Origin: Dudresnaya verticillata
Taxonomy: Eukaryota
Length of the DNA: 64,000 bases
NCBI GenBank assembly: GCA_977862235.1
Contig: OZ374565.1
Location: forward strand, 1 to 64,000
Direction of reading: 5' to 3'
In this document: in pieces, positions 1 to 49,840 of the stretch
How positions within the stretch are numbered: the first letter of the stretch is position 1
Layout: the number at the start of each line of letters is the position of its first letter
Position numbers and translations under genes: made by a program
Notes under the pieces: generated by a model
The model's database searches: none
What the model was told of the DNA's origin: nothing
Seen by the model: the letters and a program-made list of their open reading frames with translations, nothing else

Positions 1-1533
1 CCTAAACCCCTAAACCCCTAAACCCCTAAACCCCTAAAACCCCTAAAACCCCTAAACCCCTAAACCCCTAAACCCCTAAACCCCTAAACCCTAAACCCCT
101 AAACCCCTAAACCCCTAAACCCCTAAACCCCTAAACCCCTAAACCCCTAAACCCCTAAACCCCTAAACCCCTAAACCCCTAAACCCCTAAAACCCCTAAA
201 CCCCTAAAACCCCTAAAACCCCTAAAACCCCTAAACCCCTAAACCCCTAAACCCCTAAACCCCTAAACCCCTAAAACCCCTAAACCCCTAAACCCCTAAA
301 CCCCTAAACCCCTAAACCCCTAAACCCCTAAACCCCTAAACCCCTAAACCCCTAAACCCCTAAACCCCTAAACCCCTAAACCCCTAAACCCCTAAACCCC
401 TAAACCCCTAAAACCCCTAAACCCCTAAAACCCTAAAACCCCTAAACCCCTAAAACCCTAAACCCCTAAAACCCCTAAACCCCTAAAACCCCTAAACCCC
501 TAAACCCCTAAACCCCTAAACCCCTAAACCCCTAAACCCCTAAACCCCTAAACCCCTAAACCCCTAAACCCCTAAACCCCTAAACCCCTAAACCCCTAAA
601 CCCCTAAACCCCTAAACCCCTAAACCCCTAAACCCCTAAACCCCTAAACCCCTAAACCCCTAAACCCCTAAACCCCTAAACCCCTAAACCCCTAAACCCC
701 TAAACCCCTAAACCCCTAAACCCCTAAACCCCTAAACCCCTAAACCCCTAAACCCCTAAACCCCTAAACCCCTAAACCCCTAAACCCCTAAACCCCTAAA
801 CCCCTAAAACCCCTAAAACCCCTAAACCCCTAAACCCCTAAACCCCTAAACCCCTAAACCCCTAAACCCCTAAACCCCTAAACCCCTAAACCCCTAAACC
901 CCTAAAACCCCTAAACCCCTAAACCCCTAAACCCCTAAACCCCTAAACCCCTAAACCCCTAAAACCCCTAAACCCCTAAAACCCCTAAACCCCTAAAACC
1001 CCTAAAACCCCTAAACCCCTAAACCCCTAAACCCCTAAACCCCTAAAACCCCCTAAACCCCTAAAACCCCTAAACCCCTAAACCCCTAAACCCCTAAACC
1101 CCTAAAACCTAAACCCCTAAAACCCCTAAAACCCCTAAACCCCTAAAACCCCTAAACCCCTAAAACCCCTAAAACCCCTAAACCCCTAAACCCCTAAAAC
1201 CCCTAAACCCCTAAACCCCTAAACCCCTAAAACCCCTAAACCCCTAAACCCCTAAAACCCTAAACCCCTAAACCCCTAAACCCCTAAACCCCTAAACCCC
1301 TAAACCCCTAAAAACCCCTAAACCCCTAAACCCCTAAACCCCTAAAACCCCTAAACCCCTAAACCCCTAAAACCCCTAAACCCCTAAACCCCTAAAACCC
1401 TAAACCCCTAAAACCCCTAAACCCCTAAAACCCCTAAACCCCTAAACCCCTAAACCCCTAAACCCCTAAACCCCTAAAACCCCTAAAACCCCTAAAAAAA
1501 CCCCTAAAACCCCTAAACCCCTAAACCCCTAAA
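1..1533 (-). repeat. Telomeric repeat tract (CCCCTAAA)n = (TTTAGGGG)n on the minus strand, with CCCCTAAAA and CCCTAAAA variants
   Basis: Uninterrupted 8-9-nt tandem repeat from base 1, C-rich strand on +, as expected at a left chromosome end. Confidence 0.97.
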
Positions 1534-1598
1534 CTCACCTTTGACGGCGGGCGAGCGCGGTCTACTTTTGTCTCTTTTTGCGCCGTCGATCTGCGCCG

Positions 1599-1646
1599 CG
1601 ACGCCGTCGTCGTCGCCGCCGTCGCCGCCGCCGTCGTCGCCGACGG
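1599..1646 (+). repeat. GC-rich (GTC/GCC)n trinucleotide low-complexity tract in the element 5' UTR (present in every copy)
   Basis: cgacgccgtcgtcgtcgccgccgtcgccgccgccgtcgtcgccgacgg. Confidence 0.85.
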
Positions 1647-1679
1647 TCACGCGTTTCCTATTTTGCGCTTACTTTTAAG

Positions 1680-1725
1680 GTGATCCCTCACCTTGAAATT
1701 TGCCCGGGCCCCACTGACTTATCTT
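1680..1725 (-). promoter_or_regulatory. Bipartite 5S internal-control-region / target mimic in the element 5' UTR (box C + box A); also at 6348, 11006, 15666, 20326, 24986, 29646, 53608, 58255, 62902
   Basis: GTGATCCCTCACCT-N22-GACTTATCTT is identical in both blocks and in spacing to 5S gene 35225-35238 / 35261-35270. Copies 3-7 have GACTTGTCTT. Function is not established. Confidence 0.7.
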
Positions 1726-1765
1726 TCTTTCCCTGGCCCTGTACGCGTTTTGCTTGTACCCGGCA

Positions 1766-2460
1766 CAGCCTAGACTCTGTCTAGGCTGCCGTGGACTGTC
1801 GACAGAGGGGTTTCACACCCTTCAACTGACAGATTGGTAAAGGCCAGGCTTGTCCTGTAAAATCTTCCTTCGGGAAGTGCCGAGAGACCTACAAGTGTGG
1901 GAATCGCCAAAGACCCTCGACCTTGAGTGGTAGGCGGCTCGTGACCCACAAGCTCATCGCAGAAACGTGCCAAGCAACGTCGAAGTTGGGGTAACGTGGC
2001 TTAAGCCTGGTGGATCCTGTTTTGAAACCACCCCTTCTAAGATCGAGCGAACGTCCTGCCAGCGAACCTTCGGGGGAGGCCAAAAATCCTGTGGGCACTC
2101 ACAGGTAAACGGTGGTTCTGCGACCCCATTGAGAGCTTGTGCAAACGAGAAGTACCGCGCGTTACAGGACCGCAGTGAAGAGACTCTTCTCAGCTGCGGC
2201 AGGGAAGGGAACGTCCGATAAGTCTACGCGCGAACGCTAACACGTGCGCCCTTTTGCGCGAGCTCGTGCGCAAATTGCGCAAAATCACGCCCTACGCTGC
2301 GAAGAGGCCTTCATCTCGCAGCAAGGCCACCTGTAGCACCCTCTGGAGGTGTCCCGAACAGACTGACGACGGACGACAGGCTTGCGTCCCGGTTAGGAGG
2401 TCTGTGCCCCGAGGGAACCTACTGTAGAGGACCTTTACAGGTACCTTACCCAGCGCTGTA
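1766..2460 (+). ncRNA. Putative highly structured RNA region of the element 5' UTR (identity unknown)
   Basis: 10-bp hairpin 1766-1788; 9-bp long-range helix 1852-1860/2162-2170; CUUCC-UUCG-GGAAG 1864-1877; GCAA-capped stem 2136-2149; further stems 2088-2105, 2170-2199, 2296-2322. Confidence 0.55.
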
Positions 2461-2463
2461 ACC

Positions 2464-5400
2464 ATGATTGGTCAGCAGCACCCCGACATGCCGAAGGTAT
2501 GGCTCTCTCCATGCTTTATGCCTTCGGCAAAACACCGCCCGACAAACAGTACCAGCTGTCCTCTGGGCTGCCAGTCGTCCTCACTGCCTACTGTAGAAGC
2601 GCTACTCATGCACCTGCGGAAGATGCATGTTCCTGGCAGGCGAGGACCACCGACGAGGACCGACATCGAGCCTCTCAAGCAGCAGCTCCTGGACTATGGA
2701 GTATGGTACTGTGTGACTCACAACAAGTACATGCCTACCCACTGTAGCTCCCGCATGAACAGTGAAGGCATGTACAGTATGCGGTACAAGAATTGCAGCG
2801 CATGTCCCGCCACTCGCACTCCGGCGTTCTCCCACGTCCCGTCCAACCAATTGACGACACCGAGCCGTGAAGAAACTGTAGCCGCGCCATCACAGACTCC
2901 TGCTCTGGACGCGGTCACGGAGACGCAACCCGAGGACGGCGAGCCGGCGGACGATATCCTGCCAGCCCCGCGACGAATCCCGGACAGCCAGGAGCCGCCT
3001 CCTGCACCGGTACCAGCTACTCAAGTGGTACCAACTGCGCAAACCCGACACGCTGCGCGGGGTCCAGGAGGGCAGCTTCTGCCGGCGGTCGAAGATATCT
3101 GTCGCTCGCATATCCCTATGGTCACACATATACCGTCTCGCGTGCGCGCAGAGGTGCGCGACGCACTGTCCAAGACGGTATGGGCTTTTACGAACGCAAA
3201 CAACTCTCAGGAAGCCACCAAAGAGCTCACTGCATTCCTGCTTTTTCCAGCAGCCGTCTTGTCCAATCCTCCCGCGGCGAGTGCAAGGGCCGGCGCGTCA
3301 ACCTCTGCGTCCTCGATCGGCACCTTCCGCGATCGAATCCGCCGCTGGGGACTCAAGGATTACGACGCCCTATGGCAGGAGGCCTTGAAGGGCTCGACAT
3401 TCCGTGAGCAGACTGCGCCTTCCGCAGAAGAGCAACGCCGTATCAACGCCTCACGAGCCCTTCGCCTCGCAAAGGAGGGCGCCTACAGTAAGGCAGCAGC
3501 AGCTCTAGACTCTGATGGAATCGCGCCAGCCACAGACTCTGTGATACAGTCCATGAAGGACAAGCACCCACAGTCCGTACCGCAAACCGACGCGGACCAC
3601 GAGCTTGACCAGTCCGAACCGCTGCCGACCATGCCTGACTTTGTGCCTTTCACAGCCGACGAAGTACGAAAAGCAGTGGCCAAGTTCCCCCGGGCTTCGG
3701 CCTCGGGGGGCACAGGACTATCACCGACGCATCTGCAGGAACTGCTCTCAGTCCCGACCACTCACGAGCACACGGGCCTGCTTGGCGGGCTCACCAAAAT
3801 GGTCAACGTGCTGGCCAGCGGCGCAGGACCTGCGGAGCTGTCGCCTTGGATTGCCAGCGCTCCTCTCACGGCTCTGAAGAAGCGCACCGGCGGTGTCCGC
3901 CCCATTGCTGTAGGAGAGACAATCCGACGACTCGTGAGCTCTATGCTCATGACCAGAGTCGCTCCCAAGGCCAAGGCATACCTCGAACCGCTTCAGCTCG
4001 GGGTCGCAACCTCGGGCGGCACAGAAGCGATTGTACACGCGGTCCGGAAGCTGCAGAATTCTCACGGCCATGACAAGTCCTACGGGTTGCTACAAGTGGA
4101 CTTGAAGAATGCCTTCAACCTTGTCAGCCGCAAAGCATTCATGAAGGAGGTCCGCCGACATATGCCTGAACTGCTATCGTGGGTCAGATACTGTTATGAC
4201 TCTGAGGGCCCGCACCTGTGGATGGGTGACACTCTACTGCGGAGTGTCACTGGTGTACAGCAAGGTGACCCGCTCGGGCCGTTACTGTTTGCTTTAGTGC
4301 TGCAGGCACTGATCAAACAGTTGAAGGAACTCACCGCCGACCTGCGGCGCTCGGGCCGCAATCAGCAAGCGGAGGCAGCAAACAACTTGCTGCTGTCACT
4401 GTTCTACCTGGACGACGGCGTCATCGTGGCGAAACACGCCGTACTCAGGAAGGTTCTGTCCTTCTTTGACTCCGAGGAAGCTAAGGGCTACGGCTTCCAC
4501 CTGCGCATGGACAAGTGTACTGTTTGGTGGCCTACTGCACCCGACCCAGAAGACTGCGCTGCCTACCCGTCGGATCTTGGGCAGAGCTACGGAGAAGGCA
4601 CTACAGTACTTCAGGCTCCGATTGGAACGCAGAACTACATGGAGGAGAGCGTGAATGGCCATGTCGAGTCCATCCAGCCCCTGCTGGACGCAATTTCGGG
4701 ACTCGAAGACCTACACGTGGCCATAACTCTACTCCGCAACTGTGCCGGAGTCTGCCGGCTGAACTACCTGCTGCGAGTAGTTCCATCATCCGCCACGGCG
4801 AAGGGCGCCGAGCTCTTCGACCAGAAGATTGAGGCTTGCATGCGCAAGCTCGTGGGAGGAGTCCTACCGAGGGACACCTTCCGCGAACTTCAGCTTCCCC
4901 TGCGCACGAAAGATCCCAGCTTCGGAATCGGTATTTCGGGAGCTGGCGACATGAACTCGAGCGCGTTTTTGGCGTCCCTTTCACTGACCCGCAACTTACT
5001 GCGTTCTATCTTACCCGCTTCTGTGAACACTGCTCTTTCTGACGATCCTTTTGCAGTAGAAGCGCATGAAGACTGGAGCGCCAAGTGCCATAGTGAGGAT
5101 GCCCTGGACCTCGAGAAGATCGACAGCGACGAGTGCCCGCGCCAGCGGGACTTGACGCGGTTGGTACTGAAGAAGGTGCAGGCCGAGCTGCCGCTCGGGG
5201 ACAGGCGGACTCAAGCTTTCCGAGCTTCCCTTGGCGTGCCGGGCGCCAAGGACTGGCTCAAGTGCCAGCCGGCACCAGGCATGAAGACGTACATTGCGGA
5301 TCGGGACTACCGCGTATGGCTTCGATTCTACTGTCGGATTCCACTGCTGGAACCCGACACGGAGTGTCCTCGGGCCGGGTGCAAGAAGATGATGGATGTT

Positions 5401-5952
5401 CACGGCGACCATCTGCTGATTTGTCCGAACGGCATGCGGAACAGCGGATCTCCTCGGTCGTGGCGCCACGACTCTCAGGTTCGTCTGCTGGCTTCGGATC
5501 TGAAACGTGCGACACGCACCCCGACTGTGGAGCCCCGCCCTGTGGGGGCTCACCTGGATCGGCCGGACATCAAGGCGCTTGGAACAGAAGGAGGAACGGA
5601 CTACCTGGACGTCACAATCAGTCATCCACTGTCGTCAGAACAACGCATTCTCAGCTGCATAACAAACCCGCAAGGGACGCTGAAGAACGCCCACGCTGAC
5701 AAGGTGCGGACTTACCGTGGCTTCATCCAGGCTGCCGGACCGGGGGCAAGACTTGTGCCGGTGCCGATGACCACACTAGGTGGCTGGCACCCGGAGGCGC
5801 ACAAGTATATGCAAGAGTTGGCGGATACCGTGGCTTCTCGGGCCATGGTAACTCGCGGTGTTTCGCGAGCGGCTCTGTTCCACAGGCACGCGGCGCGACT
5901 GGTGCAGAACAACGTCAAGTGCCTGATGGAAGGGATCCAACAGGAGGTGTAG
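2464..5952 (+). CDS. Retrotransposon polyprotein, 1162 aa: N-terminal C2H2 zinc finger, reverse transcriptase, CCHC knuckle, restriction-like endonuclease
   Basis: C-x3-C-x13-H-x4-H; GVRPIAVGE, QLGV..GGTEA, DLKNAFN, GVQQGDPLGPLLF, YLDD; C-x4-C-x9-H-x3-C, RHD, RPD..LDVTI..K..Y. Confidence 0.97.
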   Translation: MIGQQHPDMPKVWLSPCFMPSAKHRPTNSTSCPLGCQSSSLPTVEALLMHLRKMHVPGRRGPPTRTDIEPLKQQLLDYGVWYCVTHNKYMPTHCSSRMNSEGMYSMRYKNCSACPATRTPAFSHVPSNQLTTPSREETVAAPSQTPALDAVTETQPEDGEPADDILPAPRRIPDSQEPPPAPVPATQVVPTAQTRHAARGPGGQLLPAVEDICRSHIPMVTHIPSRVRAEVRDALSKTVWAFTNANNSQEATKELTAFLLFPAAVLSNPPAASARAGASTSASSIGTFRDRIRRWGLKDYDALWQEALKGSTFREQTAPSAEEQRRINASRALRLAKEGAYSKAAAALDSDGIAPATDSVIQSMKDKHPQSVPQTDADHELDQSEPLPTMPDFVPFTADEVRKAVAKFPRASASGGTGLSPTHLQELLSVPTTHEHTGLLGGLTKMVNVLASGAGPAELSPWIASAPLTALKKRTGGVRPIAVGETIRRLVSSMLMTRVAPKAKAYLEPLQLGVATSGGTEAIVHAVRKLQNSHGHDKSYGLLQVDLKNAFNLVSRKAFMKEVRRHMPELLSWVRYCYDSEGPHLWMGDTLLRSVTGVQQGDPLGPLLFALVLQALIKQLKELTADLRRSGRNQQAEAANNLLLSLFYLDDGVIVAKHAVLRKVLSFFDSEEAKGYGFHLRMDKCTVWWPTAPDPEDCAAYPSDLGQSYGEGTTVLQAPIGTQNYMEESVNGHVESIQPLLDAISGLEDLHVAITLLRNCAGVCRLNYLLRVVPSSATAKGAELFDQKIEACMRKLVGGVLPRDTFRELQLPLRTKDPSFGIGISGAGDMNSSAFLASLSLTRNLLRSILPASVNTALSDDPFAVEAHEDWSAKCHSEDALDLEKIDSDECPRQRDLTRLVLKKVQAELPLGDRRTQAFRASLGVPGAKDWLKCQPAPGMKTYIADRDYRVWLRFYCRIPLLEPDTECPRAGCKKMMDVHGDHLLICPNGMRNSGSPRSWRHDSQVRLLASDLKRATRTPTVEPRPVGAHLDRPDIKALGTEGGTDYLDVTISHPLSSEQRILSCITNPQGTLKNAHADKVRTYRGFIQAAGPGARLVPVPMTTLGGWHPEAHKYMQELADTVASRAMVTRGVSRAALFHRHAARLVQNNVKCLMEGIQQEV

Positions 5953-32300: not shown

Positions 32301-34021
32301 ACCGCCGACCTGCGGCGCTCGGGCCGCAATCAGCAAGCGGAGGGGGCGAACAACTTGCTGCTGTCACTGTTCTACCTGGACGACGGCGTCATCGTGGCGA
32401 AACACGCCGTACTCAGGAAGGTTCTGTCCTTCTTTGACTCCGAGGAAGCTAAGGGCTATGGCTTCCACCTGCGCATGGACAAGTGTACTGTTTGGTGGCC
32501 TACTGCACCCGACCCAGAAGACTGCGCTGCCTACCCGTCGGATCTTGGGCAGAGCTACGGAGAAGGCACTACAGTACTTCAGGCTCCGATTGGAACGCAG
32601 AACTACATGGAGGAGAGCGTGAATGGCCATGTCGAGTCCATCCAGCCCCTGCTGGACGCAATTTCGGGACTAGAAGACCTACACGTGGCCATCACTCTAC
32701 TCCGCAACTGTGCCGGAGTCTGCCGGCTGAACTACCTGCTGCGAGTAGTTCCATCATCCGCCACGGCAAAGGGCGCCGAGCTCTTCGACCAGAAGATTGA
32801 GGCTTGCATGCGCAAGCTCGTGGGAGGAGTCCTACCGAGGGACACCTTCCGCGAACTTCAGCTTCCCCTGCGCACGAAAGAGCCCAGCTTCGGAATCGGT
32901 ATTTCGGGAGCTGGCGACATGAACTCGAGCGCGTTTTTGGCGTCCCTTTCACTGACCCGCAACTTACTGCGTTCTATCTTACCCGCTTCTGTGAACACTG
33001 CTCTTTCTGACGATCCTTTTGCAGTAGAAGCGCACGAAGACTGGAGCGCCAAGTGCCATAGTGAGGATGCCCTGGACCTGGAGAAGATCGACAGCGACGA
33101 GTGCCCGCGCCAGCGGGACTTGACGCGGTTGGTTCTGAAGAAAGTGCAAGCCGAGCTGCCGCTCGGGGACAGGCGGACGCAAGCTTTCCGAGCTTCCCTT
33201 GGCGTGCCGGGCGCCAAGGACTGGCTCAAGTGCCAGCCGGCACCAGGCATGAAGACGTACATTGCGGATCGGGACTACCGCGTATGGCTTCGATTCTACT
33301 GTCGGATTCCACTGCTGGAACCCGACACGGAGTGTCCTCGGGCCGGGTGCAAGAAGATGATGGATGTTCACGGCGACCATCTGCTGATTTGTCCGAACGG
33401 CATGCGGAACAGCGGATCTCCTCGGTCGTGGCGCCACGACTCTCAGGTTCGTCTGCTGGCTTCGGATCTGAAACGTGCGACACGCACCCCGATTGTGGAG
33501 CCCCGCCCTGTGGGGGCTCACTTGGATCGGCCGGACATCAAGGCGCTTGGAACAGAAGGAGGAACGGACTACCTGGACGTCACAATCAGTCATCCACTGT
33601 CGTCAGAACAACGCATTCTCAGCTGCATAACAAACCCGCAAGGGACGCTGAAGAACGCCCACGCTGACAAGGTGCGGACTTACCGTGGCTTCATCCAGGC
33701 TGCCGGACCGGGGGCAAGGCTTGTGCCGGTGCCGATGACCACACTAGGTGGCTGGCACCCGGAGGCGCACAAGTATATGCAAGAGTTGGCGGATACCGTG
33801 GCTTCTCGGGCCATGGTAACTCGCGGTGTTTCGCGAGCGGCTCTGTTCCACAGGCACGCGGCGCGACTGGTGCAGAACAACGTCAAGTGCCTGATGGAAG
33901 GGATCCAACAGGAGGTGTAGATGTGCAGGTTGTTTTGAGTTGGGGTTTAACTTTGTTGTGATACTACAGTAGATTGTACGTCGACAAATATTAGAATATG
34001 GTCACCTGTTATAAAGTTGAA
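29376..34021 (+). mobile_element. RLE non-LTR retrotransposon, copy 7; 3' end joined directly into a 5S rRNA gene
   Basis: ...ATAAAGTTGAA|CTCACCTCAGTACTAAACCAGCC..., continuing as 5S sequence. Confidence 0.95.
30432..33920 (+). CDS. Retrotransposon RT/RLE polyprotein, 1162 aa
   Basis: Intact ORF, same motifs. Confidence 0.97.
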   Translation: MIGQQHPDMPKVWLSPCFMPSAKHRPTNSTSCPLGCQSSSLPTVEALLMHLRKMHVPGRRGPPTRTDIEPLKQQLLDYGVWYCVTHNKYMPTHCSSRMNSEGMYSMRYKNYSACPATRTPAFSHVPSNQLTTPSREETVAAPSQSPALDAVTETQPEDGEPADDILPAPRRIPDSQEPPPAPVPATREVPTAQTPPVARGPGGQLLPAVEDICRSHIPMVTHIPSRVRAEVRDALSKTVWAFTNATNSQEATKELTAFLLFPAAVLSNPPAASARASASTSASSIGTFRDRIRRWGLKDYDALWQEALKGSTFREQTAPSAEEQRRINASRALRLAKEGAYSKAAAALDSDGIAPATDSVIQSMKDKHPQSVPQTDADHELDQSEPLPTMPDFVPFTADEVRKAVAKFPRASASGGTGLSPTHLQELLSVPTTHEHTGLLGGLTKMVNVLASGAGPAELSPWIASAPLTALKKRTGGVRPIAVGETIRRLVSSMLMTRVAPKAKAYLEPLQLGVATSGGTEAIVHAVRKLQNSHGHDKSYGLLQVDLKNAFNLVSRKAFMKEVRRHMPELLPWVRYCYDSEGPHLWMGDTLLRSVTGVQQGDPLGPLLFALVLQALIKQLKELTADLRRSGRNQQAEGANNLLLSLFYLDDGVIVAKHAVLRKVLSFFDSEEAKGYGFHLRMDKCTVWWPTAPDPEDCAAYPSDLGQSYGEGTTVLQAPIGTQNYMEESVNGHVESIQPLLDAISGLEDLHVAITLLRNCAGVCRLNYLLRVVPSSATAKGAELFDQKIEACMRKLVGGVLPRDTFRELQLPLRTKEPSFGIGISGAGDMNSSAFLASLSLTRNLLRSILPASVNTALSDDPFAVEAHEDWSAKCHSEDALDLEKIDSDECPRQRDLTRLVLKKVQAELPLGDRRTQAFRASLGVPGAKDWLKCQPAPGMKTYIADRDYRVWLRFYCRIPLLEPDTECPRAGCKKMMDVHGDHLLICPNGMRNSGSPRSWRHDSQVRLLASDLKRATRTPIVEPRPVGAHLDRPDIKALGTEGGTDYLDVTISHPLSSEQRILSCITNPQGTLKNAHADKVRTYRGFIQAAGPGARLVPVPMTTLGGWHPEAHKYMQELADTVASRAMVTRGVSRAALFHRHAARLVQNNVKCLMEGIQQEV

Positions 34022-34110
34022 CTCACCTCAGTACTAAACCAGCCTGACGAGACTTATCTTCGCAGTTCGGGATGGGATACGGAGCATGTCTGCGTAGTAT
34101 GGCCGAATGT
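34022..34110 (-). pseudogene. 5S rRNA gene truncated by retrotransposon insertion (nt 1-89 retained)
   Basis: Identical to 35232-35320; nt 90-120 and the terminator are replaced by the element 3' end. Confidence 0.93.
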
Positions 34111-35187
34111 GCTTGCTGTTCCCGCCGTACCCCTATTTAAATGCGCCATCAACTGCACTCCCCGTCATCGACTAAAGACTCCTGCGTCCAATGTCCATCC
34201 CACTGTAGTGTACACGTGGAGCATTATAGTAGTGACTCATAACCGTATACCATTTACTCTAAACGCAGGATCCAATATAAATACGGTGAACCAGCTCATG
34301 GACGTTCTGACCCCTTGGTTCAATGAAACCAGCACCCAATCTAATTTACAGAGCCCCTAGATCCAATCCTATAACGCTTTGACTTCTGTTGATCCAATCC
34401 ATCCACCCTTATTGGATCCGAACCTGATGCATTCCGTGATTTATATTACTGCATTGTACTATACTTTCTCATCCTTCCCTTTCCATTTCCTCATCCTTAC
34501 TCCTTTCCTTCCCACTCTCTGCACCCCTAAACGCGTTAAAATGACACATCCCTAACACCCCTAAACCCACCCATAACCATACGTGCCCCAAACCCCGATT
34601 TAACCCGCTCAAAAGCTGCCGACGGCCCGTGGGGACGTTTTGCACCATAGAAACGCGCTAAAAAGTCGATTTAGGAGGGTAAGAGCGCTACGCAATGCGC
34701 AGCAACGAGACGCTTCGATTGAGCTACTGAACAGCGCCCGAGCCCCAGCCGTTCCAAAGTTATGAGCACAAACGTCCAAGCCACCCTCACCCCAGCCACC
34801 AGACTTGATCCGATTGTGGTGATCCTTGATCCAATCTTCTGGGTACTAAATCTAATCCAATTCTATGTCCCTAAATCCAATTCATCCACCACACTGATCC
34901 ATTCCATCCACCACCATGATTCACTCCATGCACCAACACTAGACCCTTTACCCTCCCAATATCATGCCCCTCGCGTACCAGAGTAACCAAACTAACCGTA
35001 GACCTAACCCTAAACAACCCCTAGACACCTGCAAACACTCTCAGACTCCCTCCCACTTACAAGAAAAGGGGAAAAGTGCGAGTGAAAAGAATACGCTGTA
35101 CAGAGGCAGTGGGTCGGGGATTCTGCGGGAGAGGTATGCAAGGCAGCAATGTACGCAGAGGGCGGCGGGGAGGAAGGAATGAGGTGC

Positions 35188-35200
35188 AAAAAAATAAAAA
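35188..35200 (-). terminator. Pol III oligo-T terminator of the 5S gene (in each intact unit)
   Basis: TTTTTATTTTTTT on the minus strand directly after the gene 3' end. Confidence 0.88.
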
Positions 35201-35320
35201 ACATTCGGCACTGGCGATTCCAGAGTGATCCCTCACCTCAGTACTAAACCAGCCTGACGAGACTTATCTTCGCAGTTCGGGATGGGATACGGAGCATGTC
35301 TGCGTAGTATGGCCGAATGT
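35201..35320 (-). rRNA. 5S rRNA
   Basis: Minus strand ACATTCGGCCATAC...CCCATCCCGAACTGCGAAGATAAG...TTAGTACTGAGGTGAGGGATCACTCTGGAATC...GCCGAATGT; 120 nt; terminal helix ACATTCGGC/GCCGAATGT; oligo-T follows. Confidence 0.96.
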
Positions 35321-35343
35321 GCTTGCTGTTCCCGCCGTACCCC

Positions 35344-35351
35344 TATTTAAA
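35344..35351 (-). promoter_or_regulatory. TATA-like element at about -24 to -31 of the 5S gene (in each unit)
   Basis: TTTAAATA on the minus strand at the usual upstream position for 5S genes. Confidence 0.6.
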
Positions 35352-36410
35352 TGCGCCATCAACTGCACTCCCCGTCATCGACTAAAGACTCCTGCGTCCA
35401 ATGTCCATCCCACTGTAGTGTACACGTGGAGCATTATAGTAGTGACTCATAACCGTATACCATTTACTCTAAACGCAGGATCCAATATAAATACGGTGAA
35501 CCAGCTCATGGACGTTCTGACCCCTTGGTTCAATGAAACCAGCACCCAATCTAATTTACAGAGCCCCTAGATCCAATCCTATAACGCTTTGACTTCTGTT
35601 GATCCAATCCATCCACCCTTATTGGATCCGAACCTGATGCATTCCGTGATTTATATTACTGCATTGTACTATACTTTCTCATCCTTCCCTTTCCATTTCC
35701 TCATCCTTACTCCTTTCCTTCCCACTCTCTGCACCCCTAAACGCGTTAAAATGACACATCCCTAACACCCCTAAACCCACCCATAACCATACGTGCCCCA
35801 AACCCCGATTTAACCCGCTCAAAAGCTGCCGACGGCCCGTGGGGACGTTTTGCACCATAGAAACGCGCTAAAAAGTCGATTTAGGAGGGTAAGAGCGCTA
35901 CGCAATGCGCAGCAACGAGACGCTTCGATTGAGCTACTGAACAGCGCCCGAGCCCCAGCCGTTCCAAAGTTATGAGCACAAACGTCCAAGCCACCCTCAC
36001 CCCAGCCACCAGACTTGATCCGATTGTGGTGATCCTTGATCCAATCTTCTGGGTACTAAATCTAATCCAATTCTATGTCCCTAAATCCAATTCATCCACC
36101 ACACTGATCCATTCCATCCACCACCATGATTCACTCCATGCACCAACACTAGACCCTTTACCCTCCCAATATCATGCCCCTCGCGTACCAGAGTAACCAA
36201 ACTAACCGTAGACCTAACCCTAAACAACCCCTAGACACCTGCAAACACTCTCAGACTCCCTCCCACTTACAAGAAAAGGGGAAAAGTGCGAGTGAAAAGA
36301 ATACGCTGTACAGAGGCAGTGGGTCGGGGATTCTGCGGGAGAGGTATGCAAGGCAGCAATGTACGCAGAGGGCGGCGGGGAGGAAGGAATGAGGTGCAAA
36401 AAAATAAAAA

Positions 36411-36530
36411 ACATTCGGCACTGGCGATTCCAGAGTGATCCCTCACCTCAGTACTAAACCAGCCTGACGAGACTTATCTTCGCAGTTCGGGATGGGATAC
36501 GGAGCATGTCTGCGTAGTATGGCCGAATGT
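36411..36530 (-). rRNA. 5S rRNA
   Basis: Repeat of 35201-35320. Confidence 0.95.
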
Positions 36531-37620
36531 GCTTGCTGTTCCCGCCGTACCCCTATTTAAATGCGCCATCAACTGCACTCCCCGTCATCGACTAAAGACT
36601 CCTGCGTCCAATGTCCATCCCACTGTAGTGTACACGTGGAGCATTATAGTAGTGACTCATAACCGTATACCATTTACTCTAAACGCAGGATCCAATATAA
36701 ATACGGTGAACCAGCTCATGGACGTTCTGACCCCTTGGTTCAATGAAACCAGCACCCAATCTAATTTACAGAGCCCCTAGATCCAATCCTATAACGCTTT
36801 GACTTCTGTTGATCCAATCCATCCACCCTTATTGGATCCGAACCTGATGCATTCCGTGATTTATATTACTGCATTGTACTATACTTTCTCATCCTTCCCT
36901 TTCCATTTCCTCATCCTTACTCCTTTCCTTCCCACTCTCTGCACCCCTAAACGCGTTAAAATGACACATCCCTAACACCCCTAAACCCACCCATAACCAT
37001 ACGTGCCCCAAACCCCGATTTAACCCGCTCAAAAGCTGCCGACGGCCCGTGGGGACGTTTTGCACCATAGAAACGCGCTAAAAAGTCGATTTAGGAGGGT
37101 AAGAGCGCTACGCAATGCGCAGCAACGAGACGCTTCGATTGAGCTACTGAACAGCGCCCGAGCCCCAGCCGTTCCAAAGTTATGAGCACAAACGTCCAAG
37201 CCACCCTCACCCCAGCCACCAGACTTGATCCGATTGTGGTGATCCTTGATCCAATCTTCTGGGTACTAAATCTAATCCAATTCTATGTCCCTAAATCCAA
37301 TTCATCCACCACACTGATCCATTCCATCCACCACCATGATTCACTCCATGCACCAACACTAGACCCTTTACCCTCCCAATATCATGCCCCTCGCGTACCA
37401 GAGTAACCAAACTAACCGTAGACCTAACCCTAAACAACCCCTAGACACCTGCAAACACTCTCAGACTCCCTCCCACTTACAAGAAAAGGGGAAAAGTGCG
37501 AGTGAAAAGAATACGCTGTACAGAGGCAGTGGGTCGGGGATTCTGCGGGAGAGGTATGCAAGGCAGCAATGTACGCAGAGGGCGGCGGGGAGGAAGGAAT
37601 GAGGTGCAAAAAAATAAAAA

Positions 37621-37740
37621 ACATTCGGCACTGGCGATTCCAGAGTGATCCCTCACCTCAGTACTAAACCAGCCTGACGAGACTTATCTTCGCAGTTCGG
37701 GATGGGATACGGAGCATGTCTGCGTAGTATGGCCGAATGT
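37621..37740 (-). rRNA. 5S rRNA
   Basis: Repeat of 35201-35320. Confidence 0.95.
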
Positions 37741-38830
37741 GCTTGCTGTTCCCGCCGTACCCCTATTTAAATGCGCCATCAACTGCACTCCCCGTCATCG
37801 ACTAAAGACTCCTGCGTCCAATGTCCATCCCACTGTAGTGTACACGTGGAGCATTATAGTAGTGACTCATAACCGTATACCATTTACTCTAAACGCAGGA
37901 TCCAATATAAATACGGTGAACCAGCTCATGGACGTTCTGACCCCTTGGTTCAATGAAACCAGCACCCAATCTAATTTACAGAGCCCCTAGATCCAATCCT
38001 ATAACGCTTTGACTTCTGTTGATCCAATCCATCCACCCTTATTGGATCCGAACCTGATGCATTCCGTGATTTATATTACTGCATTGTACTATACTTTCTC
38101 ATCCTTCCCTTTCCATTTCCTCATCCTTACTCCTTTCCTTCCCACTCTCTGCACCCCTAAACGCGTTAAAATGACACATCCCTAACACCCCTAAACCCAC
38201 CCATAACCATACGTGCCCCAAACCCCGATTTAACCCGCTCAAAAGCTGCCGACGGCCCGTGGGGACGTTTTGCACCATAGAAACGCGCTAAAAAGTCGAT
38301 TTAGGAGGGTAAGAGCGCTACGCAATGCGCAGCAACGAGACGCTTCGATTGAGCTACTGAACAGCGCCCGAGCCCCAGCCGTTCCAAAGTTATGAGCACA
38401 AACGTCCAAGCCACCCTCACCCCAGCCACCAGACTTGATCCGATTGTGGTGATCCTTGATCCAATCTTCTGGGTACTAAATCTAATCCAATTCTATGTCC
38501 CTAAATCCAATTCATCCACCACACTGATCCATTCCATCCACCACCATGATTCACTCCATGCACCAACACTAGACCCTTTACCCTCCCAATATCATGCCCC
38601 TCGCGTACCAGAGTAACCAAACTAACCGTAGACCTAACCCTAAACAACCCCTAGACACCTGCAAACACTCTCAGACTCCCTCCCACTTACAAGAAAAGGG
38701 GAAAAGTGCGAGTGAAAAGAATACGCTGTACAGAGGCAGTGGGTCGGGGATTCTGCGGGAGAGGTATGCAAGGCAGCAATGTACGCAGAGGGCGGCGGGG
38801 AGGAAGGAATGAGGTGCAAAAAAATAAAAA

Positions 38831-38950
38831 ACATTCGGCACTGGCGATTCCAGAGTGATCCCTCACCTCAGTACTAAACCAGCCTGACGAGACTTATCTT
38901 CGCAGTTCGGGATGGGATACGGAGCATGTCTGCGTAGTATGGCCGAATGT
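38831..38950 (-). rRNA. 5S rRNA
   Basis: Repeat of 35201-35320. Confidence 0.95.
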
Positions 38951-40040
38951 GCTTGCTGTTCCCGCCGTACCCCTATTTAAATGCGCCATCAACTGCACTC
39001 CCCGTCATCGACTAAAGACTCCTGCGTCCAATGTCCATCCCACTGTAGTGTACACGTGGAGCATTATAGTAGTGACTCATAACCGTATACCATTTACTCT
39101 AAACGCAGGATCCAATATAAATACGGTGAACCAGCTCATGGACGTTCTGACCCCTTGGTTCAATGAAACCAGCACCCAATCTAATTTACAGAGCCCCTAG
39201 ATCCAATCCTATAACGCTTTGACTTCTGTTGATCCAATCCATCCACCCTTATTGGATCCGAACCTGATGCATTCCGTGATTTATATTACTGCATTGTACT
39301 ATACTTTCTCATCCTTCCCTTTCCATTTCCTCATCCTTACTCCTTTCCTTCCCACTCTCTGCACCCCTAAACGCGTTAAAATGACACATCCCTAACACCC
39401 CTAAACCCACCCATAACCATACGTGCCCCAAACCCCGATTTAACCCGCTCAAAAGCTGCCGACGGCCCGTGGGGACGTTTTGCACCATAGAAACGCGCTA
39501 AAAAGTCGATTTAGGAGGGTAAGAGCGCTACGCAATGCGCAGCAACGAGACGCTTCGATTGAGCTACTGAACAGCGCCCGAGCCCCAGCCGTTCCAAAGT
39601 TATGAGCACAAACGTCCAAGCCACCCTCACCCCAGCCACCAGACTTGATCCGATTGTGGTGATCCTTGATCCAATCTTCTGGGTACTAAATCTAATCCAA
39701 TTCTATGTCCCTAAATCCAATTCATCCACCACACTGATCCATTCCATCCACCACCATGATTCACTCCATGCACCAACACTAGACCCTTTACCCTCCCAAT
39801 ATCATGCCCCTCGCGTACCAGAGTAACCAAACTAACCGTAGACCTAACCCTAAACAACCCCTAGACACCTGCAAACACTCTCAGACTCCCTCCCACTTAC
39901 AAGAAAAGGGGAAAAGTGCGAGTGAAAAGAATACGCTGTACAGAGGCAGTGGGTCGGGGATTCTGCGGGAGAGGTATGCAAGGCAGCAATGTACGCAGAG
40001 GGCGGCGGGGAGGAAGGAATGAGGTGCAAAAAAATAAAAA

Positions 40041-40160
40041 ACATTCGGCACTGGCGATTCCAGAGTGATCCCTCACCTCAGTACTAAACCAGCCTGACGA
40101 GACTTATCTTCGCAGTTCGGGATGGGATACGGAGCATGTCTGCGTAGTATGGCCGAATGT
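40041..40160 (-). rRNA. 5S rRNA
   Basis: Repeat of 35201-35320. Confidence 0.95.
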
Positions 40161-41250
40161 GCTTGCTGTTCCCGCCGTACCCCTATTTAAATGCGCCATC
40201 AACTGCACTCCCCGTCATCGACTAAAGACTCCTGCGTCCAATGTCCATCCCACTGTAGTGTACACGTGGAGCATTATAGTAGTGACTCATAACCGTATAC
40301 CATTTACTCTAAACGCAGGATCCAATATAAATACGGTGAACCAGCTCATGGACGTTCTGACCCCTTGGTTCAATGAAACCAGCACCCAATCTAATTTACA
40401 GAGCCCCTAGATCCAATCCTATAACGCTTTGACTTCTGTTGATCCAATCCATCCACCCTTATTGGATCCGAACCTGATGCATTCCGTGATTTATATTACT
40501 GCATTGTACTATACTTTCTCATCCTTCCCTTTCCATTTCCTCATCCTTACTCCTTTCCTTCCCACTCTCTGCACCCCTAAACGCGTTAAAATGACACATC
40601 CCTAACACCCCTAAACCCACCCATAACCATACGTGCCCCAAACCCCGATTTAACCCGCTCAAAAGCTGCCGACGGCCCGTGGGGACGTTTTGCACCATAG
40701 AAACGCGCTAAAAAGTCGATTTAGGAGGGTAAGAGCGCTACGCAATGCGCAGCAACGAGACGCTTCGATTGAGCTACTGAACAGCGCCCGAGCCCCAGCC
40801 GTTCCAAAGTTATGAGCACAAACGTCCAAGCCACCCTCACCCCAGCCACCAGACTTGATCCGATTGTGGTGATCCTTGATCCAATCTTCTGGGTACTAAA
40901 TCTAATCCAATTCTATGTCCCTAAATCCAATTCATCCACCACACTGATCCATTCCATCCACCACCATGATTCACTCCATGCACCAACACTAGACCCTTTA
41001 CCCTCCCAATATCATGCCCCTCGCGTACCAGAGTAACCAAACTAACCGTAGACCTAACCCTAAACAACCCCTAGACACCTGCAAACACTCTCAGACTCCC
41101 TCCCACTTACAAGAAAAGGGGAAAAGTGCGAGTGAAAAGAATACGCTGTACAGAGGCAGTGGGTCGGGGATTCTGCGGGAGAGGTATGCAAGGCAGCAAT
41201 GTACGCAGAGGGCGGCGGGGAGGAAGGAATGAGGTGCAAAAAAATAAAAA

Positions 41251-41370
41251 ACATTCGGCACTGGCGATTCCAGAGTGATCCCTCACCTCAGTACTAAACC
41301 AGCCTGACGAGACTTATCTTCGCAGTTCGGGATGGGATACGGAGCATGTCTGCGTAGTATGGCCGAATGT
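41251..41370 (-). rRNA. 5S rRNA
   Basis: Repeat of 35201-35320. Confidence 0.95.
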
Positions 41371-42460
41371 GCTTGCTGTTCCCGCCGTACCCCTATTTAA
41401 ATGCGCCATCAACTGCACTCCCCGTCATCGACTAAAGACTCCTGCGTCCAATGTCCATCCCACTGTAGTGTACACGTGGAGCATTATAGTAGTGACTCAT
41501 AACCGTATACCATTTACTCTAAACGCAGGATCCAATATAAATACGGTGAACCAGCTCATGGACGTTCTGACCCCTTGGTTCAATGAAACCAGCACCCAAT
41601 CTAATTTACAGAGCCCCTAGATCCAATCCTATAACGCTTTGACTTCTGTTGATCCAATCCATCCACCCTTATTGGATCCGAACCTGATGCATTCCGTGAT
41701 TTATATTACTGCATTGTACTATACTTTCTCATCCTTCCCTTTCCATTTCCTCATCCTTACTCCTTTCCTTCCCACTCTCTGCACCCCTAAACGCGTTAAA
41801 ATGACACATCCCTAACACCCCTAAACCCACCCATAACCATACGTGCCCCAAACCCCGATTTAACCCGCTCAAAAGCTGCCGACGGCCCGTGGGGACGTTT
41901 TGCACCATAGAAACGCGCTAAAAAGTCGATTTAGGAGGGTAAGAGCGCTACGCAATGCGCAGCAACGAGACGCTTCGATTGAGCTACTGAACAGCGCCCG
42001 AGCCCCAGCCGTTCCAAAGTTATGAGCACAAACGTCCAAGCCACCCTCACCCCAGCCACCAGACTTGATCCGATTGTGGTGATCCTTGATCCAATCTTCT
42101 GGGTACTAAATCTAATCCAATTCTATGTCCCTAAATCCAATTCATCCACCACACTGATCCATTCCATCCACCACCATGATTCACTCCATGCACCAACACT
42201 AGACCCTTTACCCTCCCAATATCATGCCCCTCGCGTACCAGAGTAACCAAACTAACCGTAGACCTAACCCTAAACAACCCCTAGACACCTGCAAACACTC
42301 TCAGACTCCCTCCCACTTACAAGAAAAGGGGAAAAGTGCGAGTGAAAAGAATACGCTGTACAGAGGCAGTGGGTCGGGGATTCTGCGGGAGAGGTATGCA
42401 AGGCAGCAATGTACGCAGAGGGCGGCGGGGAGGAAGGAATGAGGTGCAAAAAAATAAAAA

Positions 42461-42580
42461 ACATTCGGCACTGGCGATTCCAGAGTGATCCCTCACCTCA
42501 GTACTAAACCAGCCTGACGAGACTTATCTTCGCAGTTCGGGATGGGATACGGAGCATGTCTGCGTAGTATGGCCGAATGT
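42461..42580 (-). rRNA. 5S rRNA
   Basis: Repeat of 35201-35320. Confidence 0.95.
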
Positions 42581-43670
42581 GCTTGCTGTTCCCGCCGTAC
42601 CCCTATTTAAATGCGCCATCAACTGCACTCCCCGTCATCGACTAAAGACTCCTGCGTCCAATGTCCATCCCACTGTAGTGTACACGTGGAGCATTATAGT
42701 AGTGACTCATAACCGTATACCATTTACTCTAAACGCAGGATCCAATATAAATACGGTGAACCAGCTCATGGACGTTCTGACCCCTTGGTTCAATGAAACC
42801 AGCACCCAATCTAATTTACAGAGCCCCTAGATCCAATCCTATAACGCTTTGACTTCTGTTGATCCAATCCATCCACCCTTATTGGATCCGAACCTGATGC
42901 ATTCCGTGATTTATATTACTGCATTGTACTATACTTTCTCATCCTTCCCTTTCCATTTCCTCATCCTTACTCCTTTCCTTCCCACTCTCTGCACCCCTAA
43001 ACGCGTTAAAATGACACATCCCTAACACCCCTAAACCCACCCATAACCATACGTGCCCCAAACCCCGATTTAACCCGCTCAAAAGCTGCCGACGGCCCGT
43101 GGGGACGTTTTGCACCATAGAAACGCGCTAAAAAGTCGATTTAGGAGGGTAAGAGCGCTACGCAATGCGCAGCAACGAGACGCTTCGATTGAGCTACTGA
43201 ACAGCGCCCGAGCCCCAGCCGTTCCAAAGTTATGAGCACAAACGTCCAAGCCACCCTCACCCCAGCCACCAGACTTGATCCGATTGTGGTGATCCTTGAT
43301 CCAATCTTCTGGGTACTAAATCTAATCCAATTCTATGTCCCTAAATCCAATTCATCCACCACACTGATCCATTCCATCCACCACCATGATTCACTCCATG
43401 CACCAACACTAGACCCTTTACCCTCCCAATATCATGCCCCTCGCGTACCAGAGTAACCAAACTAACCGTAGACCTAACCCTAAACAACCCCTAGACACCT
43501 GCAAACACTCTCAGACTCCCTCCCACTTACAAGAAAAGGGGAAAAGTGCGAGTGAAAAGAATACGCTGTACAGAGGCAGTGGGTCGGGGATTCTGCGGGA
43601 GAGGTATGCAAGGCAGCAATGTACGCAGAGGGCGGCGGGGAGGAAGGAATGAGGTGCAAAAAAATAAAAA

Positions 43671-43790
43671 ACATTCGGCACTGGCGATTCCAGAGTGATC
43701 CCTCACCTCAGTACTAAACCAGCCTGACGAGACTTATCTTCGCAGTTCGGGATGGGATACGGAGCATGTCTGCGTAGTATGGCCGAATGT
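43671..43790 (-). rRNA. 5S rRNA
   Basis: Repeat of 35201-35320. Confidence 0.95.
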
Positions 43791-44880
43791 GCTTGCTGTT
43801 CCCGCCGTACCCCTATTTAAATGCGCCATCAACTGCACTCCCCGTCATCGACTAAAGACTCCTGCGTCCAATGTCCATCCCACTGTAGTGTACACGTGGA
43901 GCATTATAGTAGTGACTCATAACCGTATACCATTTACTCTAAACGCAGGATCCAATATAAATACGGTGAACCAGCTCATGGACGTTCTGACCCCTTGGTT
44001 CAATGAAACCAGCACCCAATCTAATTTACAGAGCCCCTAGATCCAATCCTATAACGCTTTGACTTCTGTTGATCCAATCCATCCACCCTTATTGGATCCG
44101 AACCTGATGCATTCCGTGATTTATATTACTGCATTGTACTATACTTTCTCATCCTTCCCTTTCCATTTCCTCATCCTTACTCCTTTCCTTCCCACTCTCT
44201 GCACCCCTAAACGCGTTAAAATGACACATCCCTAACACCCCTAAACCCACCCATAACCATACGTGCCCCAAACCCCGATTTAACCCGCTCAAAAGCTGCC
44301 GACGGCCCGTGGGGACGTTTTGCACCATAGAAACGCGCTAAAAAGTCGATTTAGGAGGGTAAGAGCGCTACGCAATGCGCAGCAACGAGACGCTTCGATT
44401 GAGCTACTGAACAGCGCCCGAGCCCCAGCCGTTCCAAAGTTATGAGCACAAACGTCCAAGCCACCCTCACCCCAGCCACCAGACTTGATCCGATTGTGGT
44501 GATCCTTGATCCAATCTTCTGGGTACTAAATCTAATCCAATTCTATGTCCCTAAATCCAATTCATCCACCACACTGATCCATTCCATCCACCACCATGAT
44601 TCACTCCATGCACCAACACTAGACCCTTTACCCTCCCAATATCATGCCCCTCGCGTACCAGAGTAACCAAACTAACCGTAGACCTAACCCTAAACAACCC
44701 CTAGACACCTGCAAACACTCTCAGACTCCCTCCCACTTACAAGAAAAGGGGAAAAGTGCGAGTGAAAAGAATACGCTGTACAGAGGCAGTGGGTCGGGGA
44801 TTCTGCGGGAGAGGTATGCAAGGCAGCAATGTACGCAGAGGGCGGCGGGGAGGAAGGAATGAGGTGCAAAAAAATAAAAA

Positions 44881-45000
44881 ACATTCGGCACTGGCGATTC
44901 CAGAGTGATCCCTCACCTCAGTACTAAACCAGCCTGACGAGACTTATCTTCGCAGTTCGGGATGGGATACGGAGCATGTCTGCGTAGTATGGCCGAATGT
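44881..45000 (-). rRNA. 5S rRNA
   Basis: Repeat of 35201-35320. Confidence 0.95.
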
Positions 45001-46090
45001 GCTTGCTGTTCCCGCCGTACCCCTATTTAAATGCGCCATCAACTGCACTCCCCGTCATCGACTAAAGACTCCTGCGTCCAATGTCCATCCCACTGTAGTG
45101 TACACGTGGAGCATTATAGTAGTGACTCATAACCGTATACCATTTACTCTAAACGCAGGATCCAATATAAATACGGTGAACCAGCTCATGGACGTTCTGA
45201 CCCCTTGGTTCAATGAAACCAGCACCCAATCTAATTTACAGAGCCCCTAGATCCAATCCTATAACGCTTTGACTTCTGTTGATCCAATCCATCCACCCTT
45301 ATTGGATCCGAACCTGATGCATTCCGTGATTTATATTACTGCATTGTACTATACTTTCTCATCCTTCCCTTTCCATTTCCTCATCCTTACTCCTTTCCTT
45401 CCCACTCTCTGCACCCCTAAACGCGTTAAAATGACACATCCCTAACACCCCTAAACCCACCCATAACCATACGTGCCCCAAACCCCGATTTAACCCGCTC
45501 AAAAGCTGCCGACGGCCCGTGGGGACGTTTTGCACCATAGAAACGCGCTAAAAAGTCGATTTAGGAGGGTAAGAGCGCTACGCAATGCGCAGCAACGAGA
45601 CGCTTCGATTGAGCTACTGAACAGCGCCCGAGCCCCAGCCGTTCCAAAGTTATGAGCACAAACGTCCAAGCCACCCTCACCCCAGCCACCAGACTTGATC
45701 CGATTGTGGTGATCCTTGATCCAATCTTCTGGGTACTAAATCTAATCCAATTCTATGTCCCTAAATCCAATTCATCCACCACACTGATCCATTCCATCCA
45801 CCACCATGATTCACTCCATGCACCAACACTAGACCCTTTACCCTCCCAATATCATGCCCCTCGCGTACCAGAGTAACCAAACTAACCGTAGACCTAACCC
45901 TAAACAACCCCTAGACACCTGCAAACACTCTCAGACTCCCTCCCACTTACAAGAAAAGGGGAAAAGTGCGAGTGAAAAGAATACGCTGTACAGAGGCAGT
46001 GGGTCGGGGATTCTGCGGGAGAGGTATGCAAGGCAGCAATGTACGCAGAGGGCGGCGGGGAGGAAGGAATGAGGTGCAAAAAAATAAAAA

Positions 46091-46210
46091 ACATTCGGCA
46101 CTGGCGATTCCAGAGTGATCCCTCACCTCAGTACTAAACCAGCCTGACGAGACTTATCTTCGCAGTTCGGGATGGGATACGGAGCATGTCTGCGTAGTAT
46201 GGCCGAATGT
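46091..46210 (-). rRNA. 5S rRNA
   Basis: Repeat of 35201-35320. Confidence 0.95.
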
Positions 46211-47300
46211 GCTTGCTGTTCCCGCCGTACCCCTATTTAAATGCGCCATCAACTGCACTCCCCGTCATCGACTAAAGACTCCTGCGTCCAATGTCCATCC
46301 CACTGTAGTGTACACGTGGAGCATTATAGTAGTGACTCATAACCGTATACCATTTACTCTAAACGCAGGATCCAATATAAATACGGTGAACCAGCTCATG
46401 GACGTTCTGACCCCTTGGTTCAATGAAACCAGCACCCAATCTAATTTACAGAGCCCCTAGATCCAATCCTATAACGCTTTGACTTCTGTTGATCCAATCC
46501 ATCCACCCTTATTGGATCCGAACCTGATGCATTCCGTGATTTATATTACTGCATTGTACTATACTTTCTCATCCTTCCCTTTCCATTTCCTCATCCTTAC
46601 TCCTTTCCTTCCCACTCTCTGCACCCCTAAACGCGTTAAAATGACACATCCCTAACACCCCTAAACCCACCCATAACCATACGTGCCCCAAACCCCGATT
46701 TAACCCGCTCAAAAGCTGCCGACGGCCCGTGGGGACGTTTTGCACCATAGAAACGCGCTAAAAAGTCGATTTAGGAGGGTAAGAGCGCTACGCAATGCGC
46801 AGCAACGAGACGCTTCGATTGAGCTACTGAACAGCGCCCGAGCCCCAGCCGTTCCAAAGTTATGAGCACAAACGTCCAAGCCACCCTCACCCCAGCCACC
46901 AGACTTGATCCGATTGTGGTGATCCTTGATCCAATCTTCTGGGTACTAAATCTAATCCAATTCTATGTCCCTAAATCCAATTCATCCACCACACTGATCC
47001 ATTCCATCCACCACCATGATTCACTCCATGCACCAACACTAGACCCTTTACCCTCCCAATATCATGCCCCTCGCGTACCAGAGTAACCAAACTAACCGTA
47101 GACCTAACCCTAAACAACCCCTAGACACCTGCAAACACTCTCAGACTCCCTCCCACTTACAAGAAAAGGGGAAAAGTGCGAGTGAAAAGAATACGCTGTA
47201 CAGAGGCAGTGGGTCGGGGATTCTGCGGGAGAGGTATGCAAGGCAGCAATGTACGCAGAGGGCGGCGGGGAGGAAGGAATGAGGTGCAAAAAAATAAAAA

Positions 47301-47420
47301 ACATTCGGCACTGGCGATTCCAGAGTGATCCCTCACCTCAGTACTAAACCAGCCTGACGAGACTTATCTTCGCAGTTCGGGATGGGATACGGAGCATGTC
47401 TGCGTAGTATGGCCGAATGT
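47301..47420 (-). rRNA. 5S rRNA
   Basis: Repeat of 35201-35320. Confidence 0.95.
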
Positions 47421-48510: not shown

Positions 48511-48630
48511 ACATTCGGCACTGGCGATTCCAGAGTGATCCCTCACCTCAGTACTAAACCAGCCTGACGAGACTTATCTTCGCAGTTCGGGATGGGATAC
48601 GGAGCATGTCTGCGTAGTATGGCCGAATGT
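48511..48630 (-). rRNA. 5S rRNA
   Basis: Repeat of 35201-35320. Confidence 0.95.
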
Positions 48631-49720: not shown

Positions 49721-49840
49721 ACATTCGGCACTGGCGATTCCAGAGTGATCCCTCACCTCAGTACTAAACCAGCCTGACGAGACTTATCTTCGCAGTTCGG
49801 GATGGGATACGGAGCATGTCTGCGTAGTATGGCCGAATGT
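49721..49840 (-). rRNA. 5S rRNA
   Basis: Repeat of 35201-35320. Confidence 0.95.

Follow-up and report, generated by a model that had tools for sequence, protein, structure and literature searches.

A predicted multibranch RNA domain in the 5' UTR of a CRE-like retrotransposon inserted antisense in 5S rDNA

R2, by now a tool for gene insertion, supplies the best-known RNA elements among retrotransposons with a restriction-like endonuclease. The 'three-claw' 5' RNA of R2 contains a pseudoknot, captures the R2 protein (binding is proven) and activates second-strand cleavage (10.1101/2023.04.07.536001). Like that RNA, the domain described here is predicted to be a large structured 5' RNA of a site-specific, rDNA-targeting element whose single ORF encodes a reverse transcriptase (RT) and a restriction-like endonuclease. 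The present domain is likened to the R2 RNA by predicted structure and context, without a match in sequence or fold, and no pseudoknot is evident in it. HDV-like ribozymes process the RNAs of R2 and other non-LTR elements, those of R2 cleaving either at the 5' junction or upstream of it (PMC3774820). These are also structured 5' RNAs in site-specific non-LTR elements; in contrast to them, the present domain yielded no double-pseudoknot core when searched, is internal and measures ~490 nt. Furthermore, since the present element is antisense to its host gene, it would not be cut from a host co-transcript, unlike in the HDV-like case. R2 targets the 28S gene, whereas the present element targets the 5S gene in antisense.

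Mutsu of zebrafish belongs to the Tx1 clade and encodes an APE endonuclease. Mutsu inserts sequence-specifically in 5S rRNA genes, as the present element does, but it has two ORFs and its sites are shown in the 5S 5' half, compared with one ORF and 5S nt ~76-89 here (PMC5340908). The CRE group (CRE1/2, SLACS, CZAR, Cnl1, MoTeR and FoTeR) shares with the present element a single ORF, site specificity (here beside a telomere) and a long 5' UTR (492-3366 bp among the FoTeR rows), as set out in the consulted sections of PMC12857005, which describe no 5' UTR structure for the group. The endonuclease motif of the present element, RHD.X19.E.X9.RPD.X13.D, fits the SLACS/CRE motif given in those sections, while its CCHC spacings (4, 9, 3, 13) are longer and its target is a 5S gene, the CRE assignment being made by motif and architecture.

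The window analysed comprises 64,000 nucleotides from Dudresnaya verticillata and runs from a telomere through seven tandem copies of a ~4.66-kb element and a 5S array to three further copies (Table 1). The target 14-mer recurs, whole or partial, at the copy junctions and is found in the 15 intact 5S genes, and the element is therefore site-specific and antisense to 5S. Window annotation and junctions thus confirm an earlier note on this DNA, made from the sequence alone, in which a tandem element antisense to 5S with a nearby copy of the target had been described. The 3' end of copy 7 enters a 5S gene at CTCACCTCAGTACT, at nt ~76-89, in the box C region of the internal promoter. The interrupted gene lies at 33993-34110. 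At the 5' junction of copy 8 (53318-53343) the 5S gene is missing its 3' portion together with the terminator. In every complete copy the ORF contains an RT (PF00078, aa 472-688) and ends in a CCHC motif followed by the endonuclease motif. A single ORF with RT, C-terminal CCHC and RHD..E..R/KPD..D endonuclease of fitting catalytic spacing, together with site-specific insertion in a multicopy target, fits the CRE pattern, and the host element would accordingly be classed as a non-LTR retrotransposon of CRE-like type, lying antisense within 5S rDNA. The closest solved structures to the ORF protein are R2 proteins.

Table 1. Positions of the element, its leader and the predicted RNA features in the window (p, pairing probability).
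Feature	Positions	Strand	Details
Telomeric repeat (CCCCTAAA)n joined to 5'-truncated element copy 1	1-1533	.	truncation from copy alignment
Remainder of GC- and CpG-rich 5' UTR segment in copy 1	1534-1721	+	
Predicted 11-bp hairpin holding 14-nt exact 5S-target copy	1673-1698	+	in 10/10 copies
Block identical in 10/10 copies	1722-2183	+	other starts: 6390, 11048, 15708, 20368, 25028, 29688, 53650, 58297, 62944
Predicted closed multibranch RNA domain	1724-2211	+	folding ensemble
Closing helix	1724-1735/2200-2211	+	12 bp, p 0.96
Helix	1738-1743/2163-2168	+	p 0.91
Helix	1744-1748/2157-2161	+	p 1.0
Helix	1751-1755/2150-2154	+	p 0.96
Six predicted hairpin arms of central multibranch loop	1759-1937	+	p 0.80-1.0; 1759-1794 (contains the 10-bp hairpin of the earlier note), 1796-1832, 1835-1846, 1847-1881, 1888-1901, 1904-1937
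10-bp hairpin	1766-1788		p 0.86-0.96
GTCCTGTAA/TTACAGGAC, closing pair of a ~300-nt domain proposed in the earlier note	1852/2162		
CTTCGG	1868 and 2068		
Long predicted arm	1938-2149	+	1938-1942/2145-2149 (5 bp), 1947-1955/2133-2141 (9 bp), 1957-1963/2117-2123 (7 bp)
CCTGTG/CACAGG stem	2088/2100		p 0.86-1.0
GCAA tetraloop stem	2136-2149		
Side hairpin	2170-2199	+	loop holds the sole substitution within the domain (2184 C/G)
CCGCAG/CTGCGG stem	2170/2194		p 0.95-1.0
UTR 3' part, variable between copies	2212-2463	+	14 variable columns; has GCTGCGA stem 2296-2322 and predicted stem 2329-2442
TTTGCGC/GCGCAAA stems	2253/2268 and 2277		p at most 0.11
GCTGCGA/TCGCAGC stem	2296/2316		p 0.90-0.93
Single ORF: N-terminal Cys/His zinc-finger-like motifs, RT, C-terminal CCHC and restriction-like endonuclease	2464-5952	+	1162 aa
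5S rRNA array	33993-52260	-	15 intact genes and 1 interrupted by copy 7 3' end
Target CTCACCTCAGTACT	35232-35245		in an intact 5S gene; recurs at element junctions

At full length the 5' UTR measures ~1050 nt; copy 1, cut by the telomere, retains ~930 nt by copy alignment. The telomere joins copy 1 at AAACTCACCT (window 1531-1545), the same letters as the element 3' end, and the join falls on an internal TCACCT site of the element; it may record self-insertion of the element before telomere healing, or else microhomology. In full copies the first 312 nt of the UTR have a CpG observed/expected ratio of 1.64 and are a candidate internal promoter. The segment 1680-1693 is an exact copy of the 5S target at 35225-35238, spans the left edge of the duplicated 14-mer and sits 30 bases upstream of the predicted domain; this copy could represent a fossil junction, a site recognized by protein or a guide. 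The 1050-nt UTR contains no AUG (shuffle mean 5.5; 3 of 2000 shuffles without one), a feature that extends to all three parts of the leader, including the upstream 312 nt and the domain, while the minus strand is ordinary in this respect (3 vs 4.8 in shuffles). No upstream ORF with a start codon was found in the leader. This absence of upstream AUGs is read as suggesting selection on a scanned mRNA leader.

Several other features of the leader were noted. A hypervariable patch (11 variable columns in 70 nt) lies in GCGC-rich palindromes at 2221-2290, and a second identical run, of 323 nt, extends over the start codon (2413-2735), with a 120-nt window that starts near 2434 giving a z of -3.6 on the + strand. 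At 1712-1768, CACTGAC, a pyrimidine tract and CACAG resemble the consensus of a branch point and 3' splice site; this pyrimidine tract is also the 5' arm of the closing helix of the domain. The 6-mer CCTGTA/TACAGG occurs 5 times in 1700-2463 against 0.33 expected and is absent from the ORF (P 2.6e-5, uncorrected for 594 6-mers). As several competing helices use it, it may belong to a switch or a DNA site.

Folding of the leader points to a closed domain in which a closing helix and a stack of inner helices lead into a central multibranch loop. The tip of its long arm is a poorly defined multiloop with a hairpin at 2088-2105. The predicted energy of the domain is -200 kcal/mol, and the z of 1722-2212 is -4.89 on the + strand (0/100 shuffles as good) and -2.12 on the - strand (2/100), values that are not blind because the boundaries were set after the copy alignment and fold had been seen. 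Five shifted UTR windows of the same length gave z of -0.5 to -2.7, and ensemble diversity is 63 for the domain compared with 112-156 in these windows. The probabilities of the inner helices were unchanged across five window sizes and in copy 3's full UTR, where the closing helix too appears in the minimum-energy fold. The nested-helix score, a statistic picked after the fold was seen, is 17 compared with 8.1 +/- 1.9 in shuffles (0/500) and 14 in the best of 20 ORF windows. Among helices with p of 0.8 or more there are 14 G-U pairs, and the pseudoknot candidates are weak, 5-bp and AU-rich. Probabilities of the helices labelled CUCGU, CACAAGCUC, CGCAGAA, UUCG2, CUGUC, GAGGG, CCUAC, A, B2, GAGGGGT and CCGCA are from the domain-level fold. 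Of 30 ORF windows, one has a larger energy gap than the domain and three a lower ensemble diversity. The window 4764-5254, between RT and endonuclease, has a z of -4.89 on + and 0.23 on -, and is possibly a second RNA element on these folding values.

These results revise the structure first suggested for this leader. The earlier note had placed a large, densely structured RNA of no known class at 1766-2460 and closed a ~300-nt domain within it by pairing the motifs at 1852 and 2162. What is supported is a large structured RNA, outside any Rfam class, in the 5' UTR of a non-LTR element, although its boundaries and closing helix differ from those proposed. The pair proposed to close it (1852/2170) has a p of 0.24 in 1766-2460 and 0.00 once 1722-1765 is added, because 2163-2168 then pairs with 1738-1743 instead, and forcing it costs 11.1 kcal/mol. 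Dense structure throughout 1766-2460 is not borne out: its counts of perfect helices with 6/7/8/9 bp or more, 56/18/7/3, are matched by 84/36/26/16 of 300 shuffles and exceeded in the first ORF window (67/19/8/4). The z of that interval is modest and alike on both strands (-2.07 on +, 0/20 shuffles as good; -1.97 on -, 1/20), and five 120-nt windows starting at ~1834-2074, inside the ~300-nt domain, gave z of -0.2 to +1.9. All of the motifs listed in that note occur where it put them, but several fail to form in the predicted ensemble. Pair probabilities uphold the 10-bp hairpin and the CCTGTG, CCGCAG and GCTGCGA stems and not the TTTGCGC stems. The first UUCG hairpin (p at most 0.13), the second (p 0.0) and the GCAA hairpin (p 0.0) require 3.5, 4.7 and 5.4 kcal/mol when forced, costs within reach of tertiary stabilization, so that these hairpins may still form; the folding ensemble lends nothing to the argument that their tetraloops identify the strand. 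The energy of 1724-2211 beats shuffles, and the covariation that was also proposed as a check was not found. Taken together, the RNA domain is probably real on this modelling, although the boundaries first given for it were wrong and the fold partly so.

The block of full identity begins 2 nt ahead of the closing helix. Among the nine complete copies none of its 462 columns varies, compared with 10/183 upstream, 15/280 downstream, 6/105 in the 3' UTR and 61/3489 in the ORF; the flanking UTR thus varies at ~5% of sites. The tenth copy is also identical over the block. Copies 1 and 3 differ at 24 of 663 fourfold sites, a rate at which ~16 changes would be expected in the block (Poisson P 1e-7 at 3.5% and 1e-4 at a cautious 2%). 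The lone change within the domain is unpaired. No compensatory change was seen among the copies in the domain helices, which never vary and therefore give no information on pairing. Downstream of the domain no two-sided change was seen among the copies, and T2401C breaks a pair of p 0.99 in copy 1.

The domain belongs to none of the RNA families tested. Rfam 15 covariance models (IRES, RNase P, SRP, group I, GIR1, twister and others) gave no match in the UTR, the best scores being 15.1 and 15.9 bits against gathering scores of 45 and 50. An HDV P3-L3 core with a U-Y-C-N-C-G loop is absent from copy 1 (1501-2600) and copy 9, the control (L135) having been found; copy 3 has one such anchor at its 5' tip (~10760), outside the domain, and on inspection this anchor has no P1 partner or P1.1 GG. 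A loose descriptor of a nested double pseudoknot with a catalytic C in J4/2 recovered its control and found 5 anchors in the UTR, as against 1-8 in 20 shuffles, and further HDV descriptors, run without a control, had 0 matches on the + strand. The HDV-like processing ribozyme raised in the earlier note thus met with negative core and Rfam searches. For the hammerhead, the single CUGANGA (CUGACGA, 2363) has no CGAAA downstream on the + strand. No Rfam group II model reached its gathering score in the window, or E up to 10 in the UTR, and no UTR match came from a profile built on the 5' parts of 19 bacterial group II introns (RF02001 class only); this profile search also ruled out a resemblance to group IIC DI-DIII motifs. 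Group I-like motifs were either in the wrong order or variable between copies.

Relatives of the element were also searched. There are 58 related proteins (the best 56, 50, 47 and 45% identical), one of which (P0005) has a PF02902 domain, presumably an Ulp1-type protease, ahead of the RT. In 85 related loci (80 metagenome, 5 genome, 0 viral; 22-48% identity in the best segment) no homologous UTR was found (blastn best E 0.025; nhmmer best E 0.052), and a covariance model for 1736-1940, for which two identical copies served as input, gave nothing better than E 0.38 on 98 loci. Rfam searches of 40 of the 85 loci returned 2 tRNAs and no ribozyme. The plasmids and phages searched had no match, and viral contigs scanned for the motif yielded 120 loci at chance level, 0/120 with the partner arm. 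Two sequencing runs match with small shares, with no RNA run among the matches listed, and their contigs, which do not span the domain, had no clear element junction at the 5S site. Two relatives, L002 and L008, have different 5' regions and lie beside tRNA genes, so the domain may not be general in the clade. At L002 1303-1376 and 1508-2479 and at L008 1449-1520, these two are placed in head-to-head orientation a short way upstream of tRNA-Arg and tRNA-Ala genes. Direct repeats mark their ends (183 nt at 73% and 32 nt at 91%), and they are possibly a tRNA-gene-targeting branch of the clade; L002 also has an upstream open frame of 324 aa. A literature search of paper listings and the openings of abstracts, beyond which lay Repbase, most subscription journals and supplements, turned up nothing on a CRE element that targets 5S or on the RNA of its leader, nor, within the same limits, on a single-ORF RLE element targeting 5S in antisense.

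Four explanations of the conserved block were weighed. The leader could have no special RNA function, being GC-rich and kept identical by gene conversion in the tandem array or by promoter sites at the DNA level, an account that is possible but somewhat unlikely. The copies are mosaics, the identity test draws nearly all its power from comparing copies 1-2 with the others, and there are further identical runs of 323, 299, 287 and 282 nt, so the block may be a conversion tract. The equal stability of the ORF window 4764-5254 and helix counts near those of shuffles agree with this account, and the repeated CCTGTA/TACAGG could be a DNA site that also makes stems. However, in each of the two copy pairs compared, no identical stretch is longer than the one formed by the block (462 and 597 nt), which is non-coding and meets the 5' edge of the domain, and the fold favors the mRNA strand, with G-U pairs among its confident helices.

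The remaining accounts accept a function for the RNA. That the domain is a translation element, an IRES or ribosome shunt that brings ribosomes to the AUG at 2464 when the RNA is uncapped or a read-through product, appears unlikely. Same-orientation tandem copies would yield read-through transcripts, a domain of such stability burdens scanning, and viral IRES elements are comparable in size and multibranch form; against this, a leader AUG-free throughout would fit scanning better than internal entry, the domain stops 252 nt short of the AUG, and Rfam has no IRES match. More doubtful still is a ribozyme of a new class that cuts or caps the element RNA from tandem read-through transcripts. The HDV-like precedent (PMC3774820) favors it, identity that includes the loops fits a tertiary constraint, and the target copy at 1680-1693 may be the fossil of a 5' junction, in which case the domain would sit at an ancestral 5' end. 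In contrast, neither an Rfam ribozyme, an HDV core, a complete hammerhead core nor group II similarity was detected, and the pseudoknot candidates are weak. The domain begins 312 nt inside the element, unlike the R2 ribozymes with their cuts at the junction or upstream of it, and the upstream part persists at several distinct 5' junctions. Because ~300 nt upstream are kept in the nine copies not cut by the telomere (six aligned, three by junctions), cleavage at the domain is argued against. The preferred account, which is held tentatively and by analogy, is that the domain is a binding platform or scaffold for the element's own protein and works like the R2 5' RNA.

A mechanism for such a scaffold can be outlined. 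Because the element lies antisense to 5S, it would be transcribed either from an internal promoter in the CpG-rich first ~310 nt or by read-through from an upstream copy. Ribosomes would then scan the leader to the AUG at 2464. Next, the newly made protein would bind the domain in cis, marking the RNA as template and likely damping further translation. Finally, once reverse transcription has removed the 3' RNA, the 5' domain, still bound, would stimulate cleavage of the second strand in the manner of the R2 5' RNA. A bolder extension, considered improbable, is that the domain and the adjacent hairpin, whose 14-nt target copy crosses the insertion site, might act together as a single RNA module, pairing with the target strand and guiding or catalyzing insertion, which would make this an RNA-guided or ribozyme-assisted non-LTR retrotransposon with a new fold class.

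If the identity reflects gene conversion alone, this is an ordinary leader in an element whose target remains unusual; if the scaffold account is true, the domain works like a known kind of RNA. A compact, intact, ten-copy CRE-like element that targets 5S, with a sharply bounded candidate domain and an internal target copy, offers a direct test case for a 5' RNA scaffold or guide in this group.
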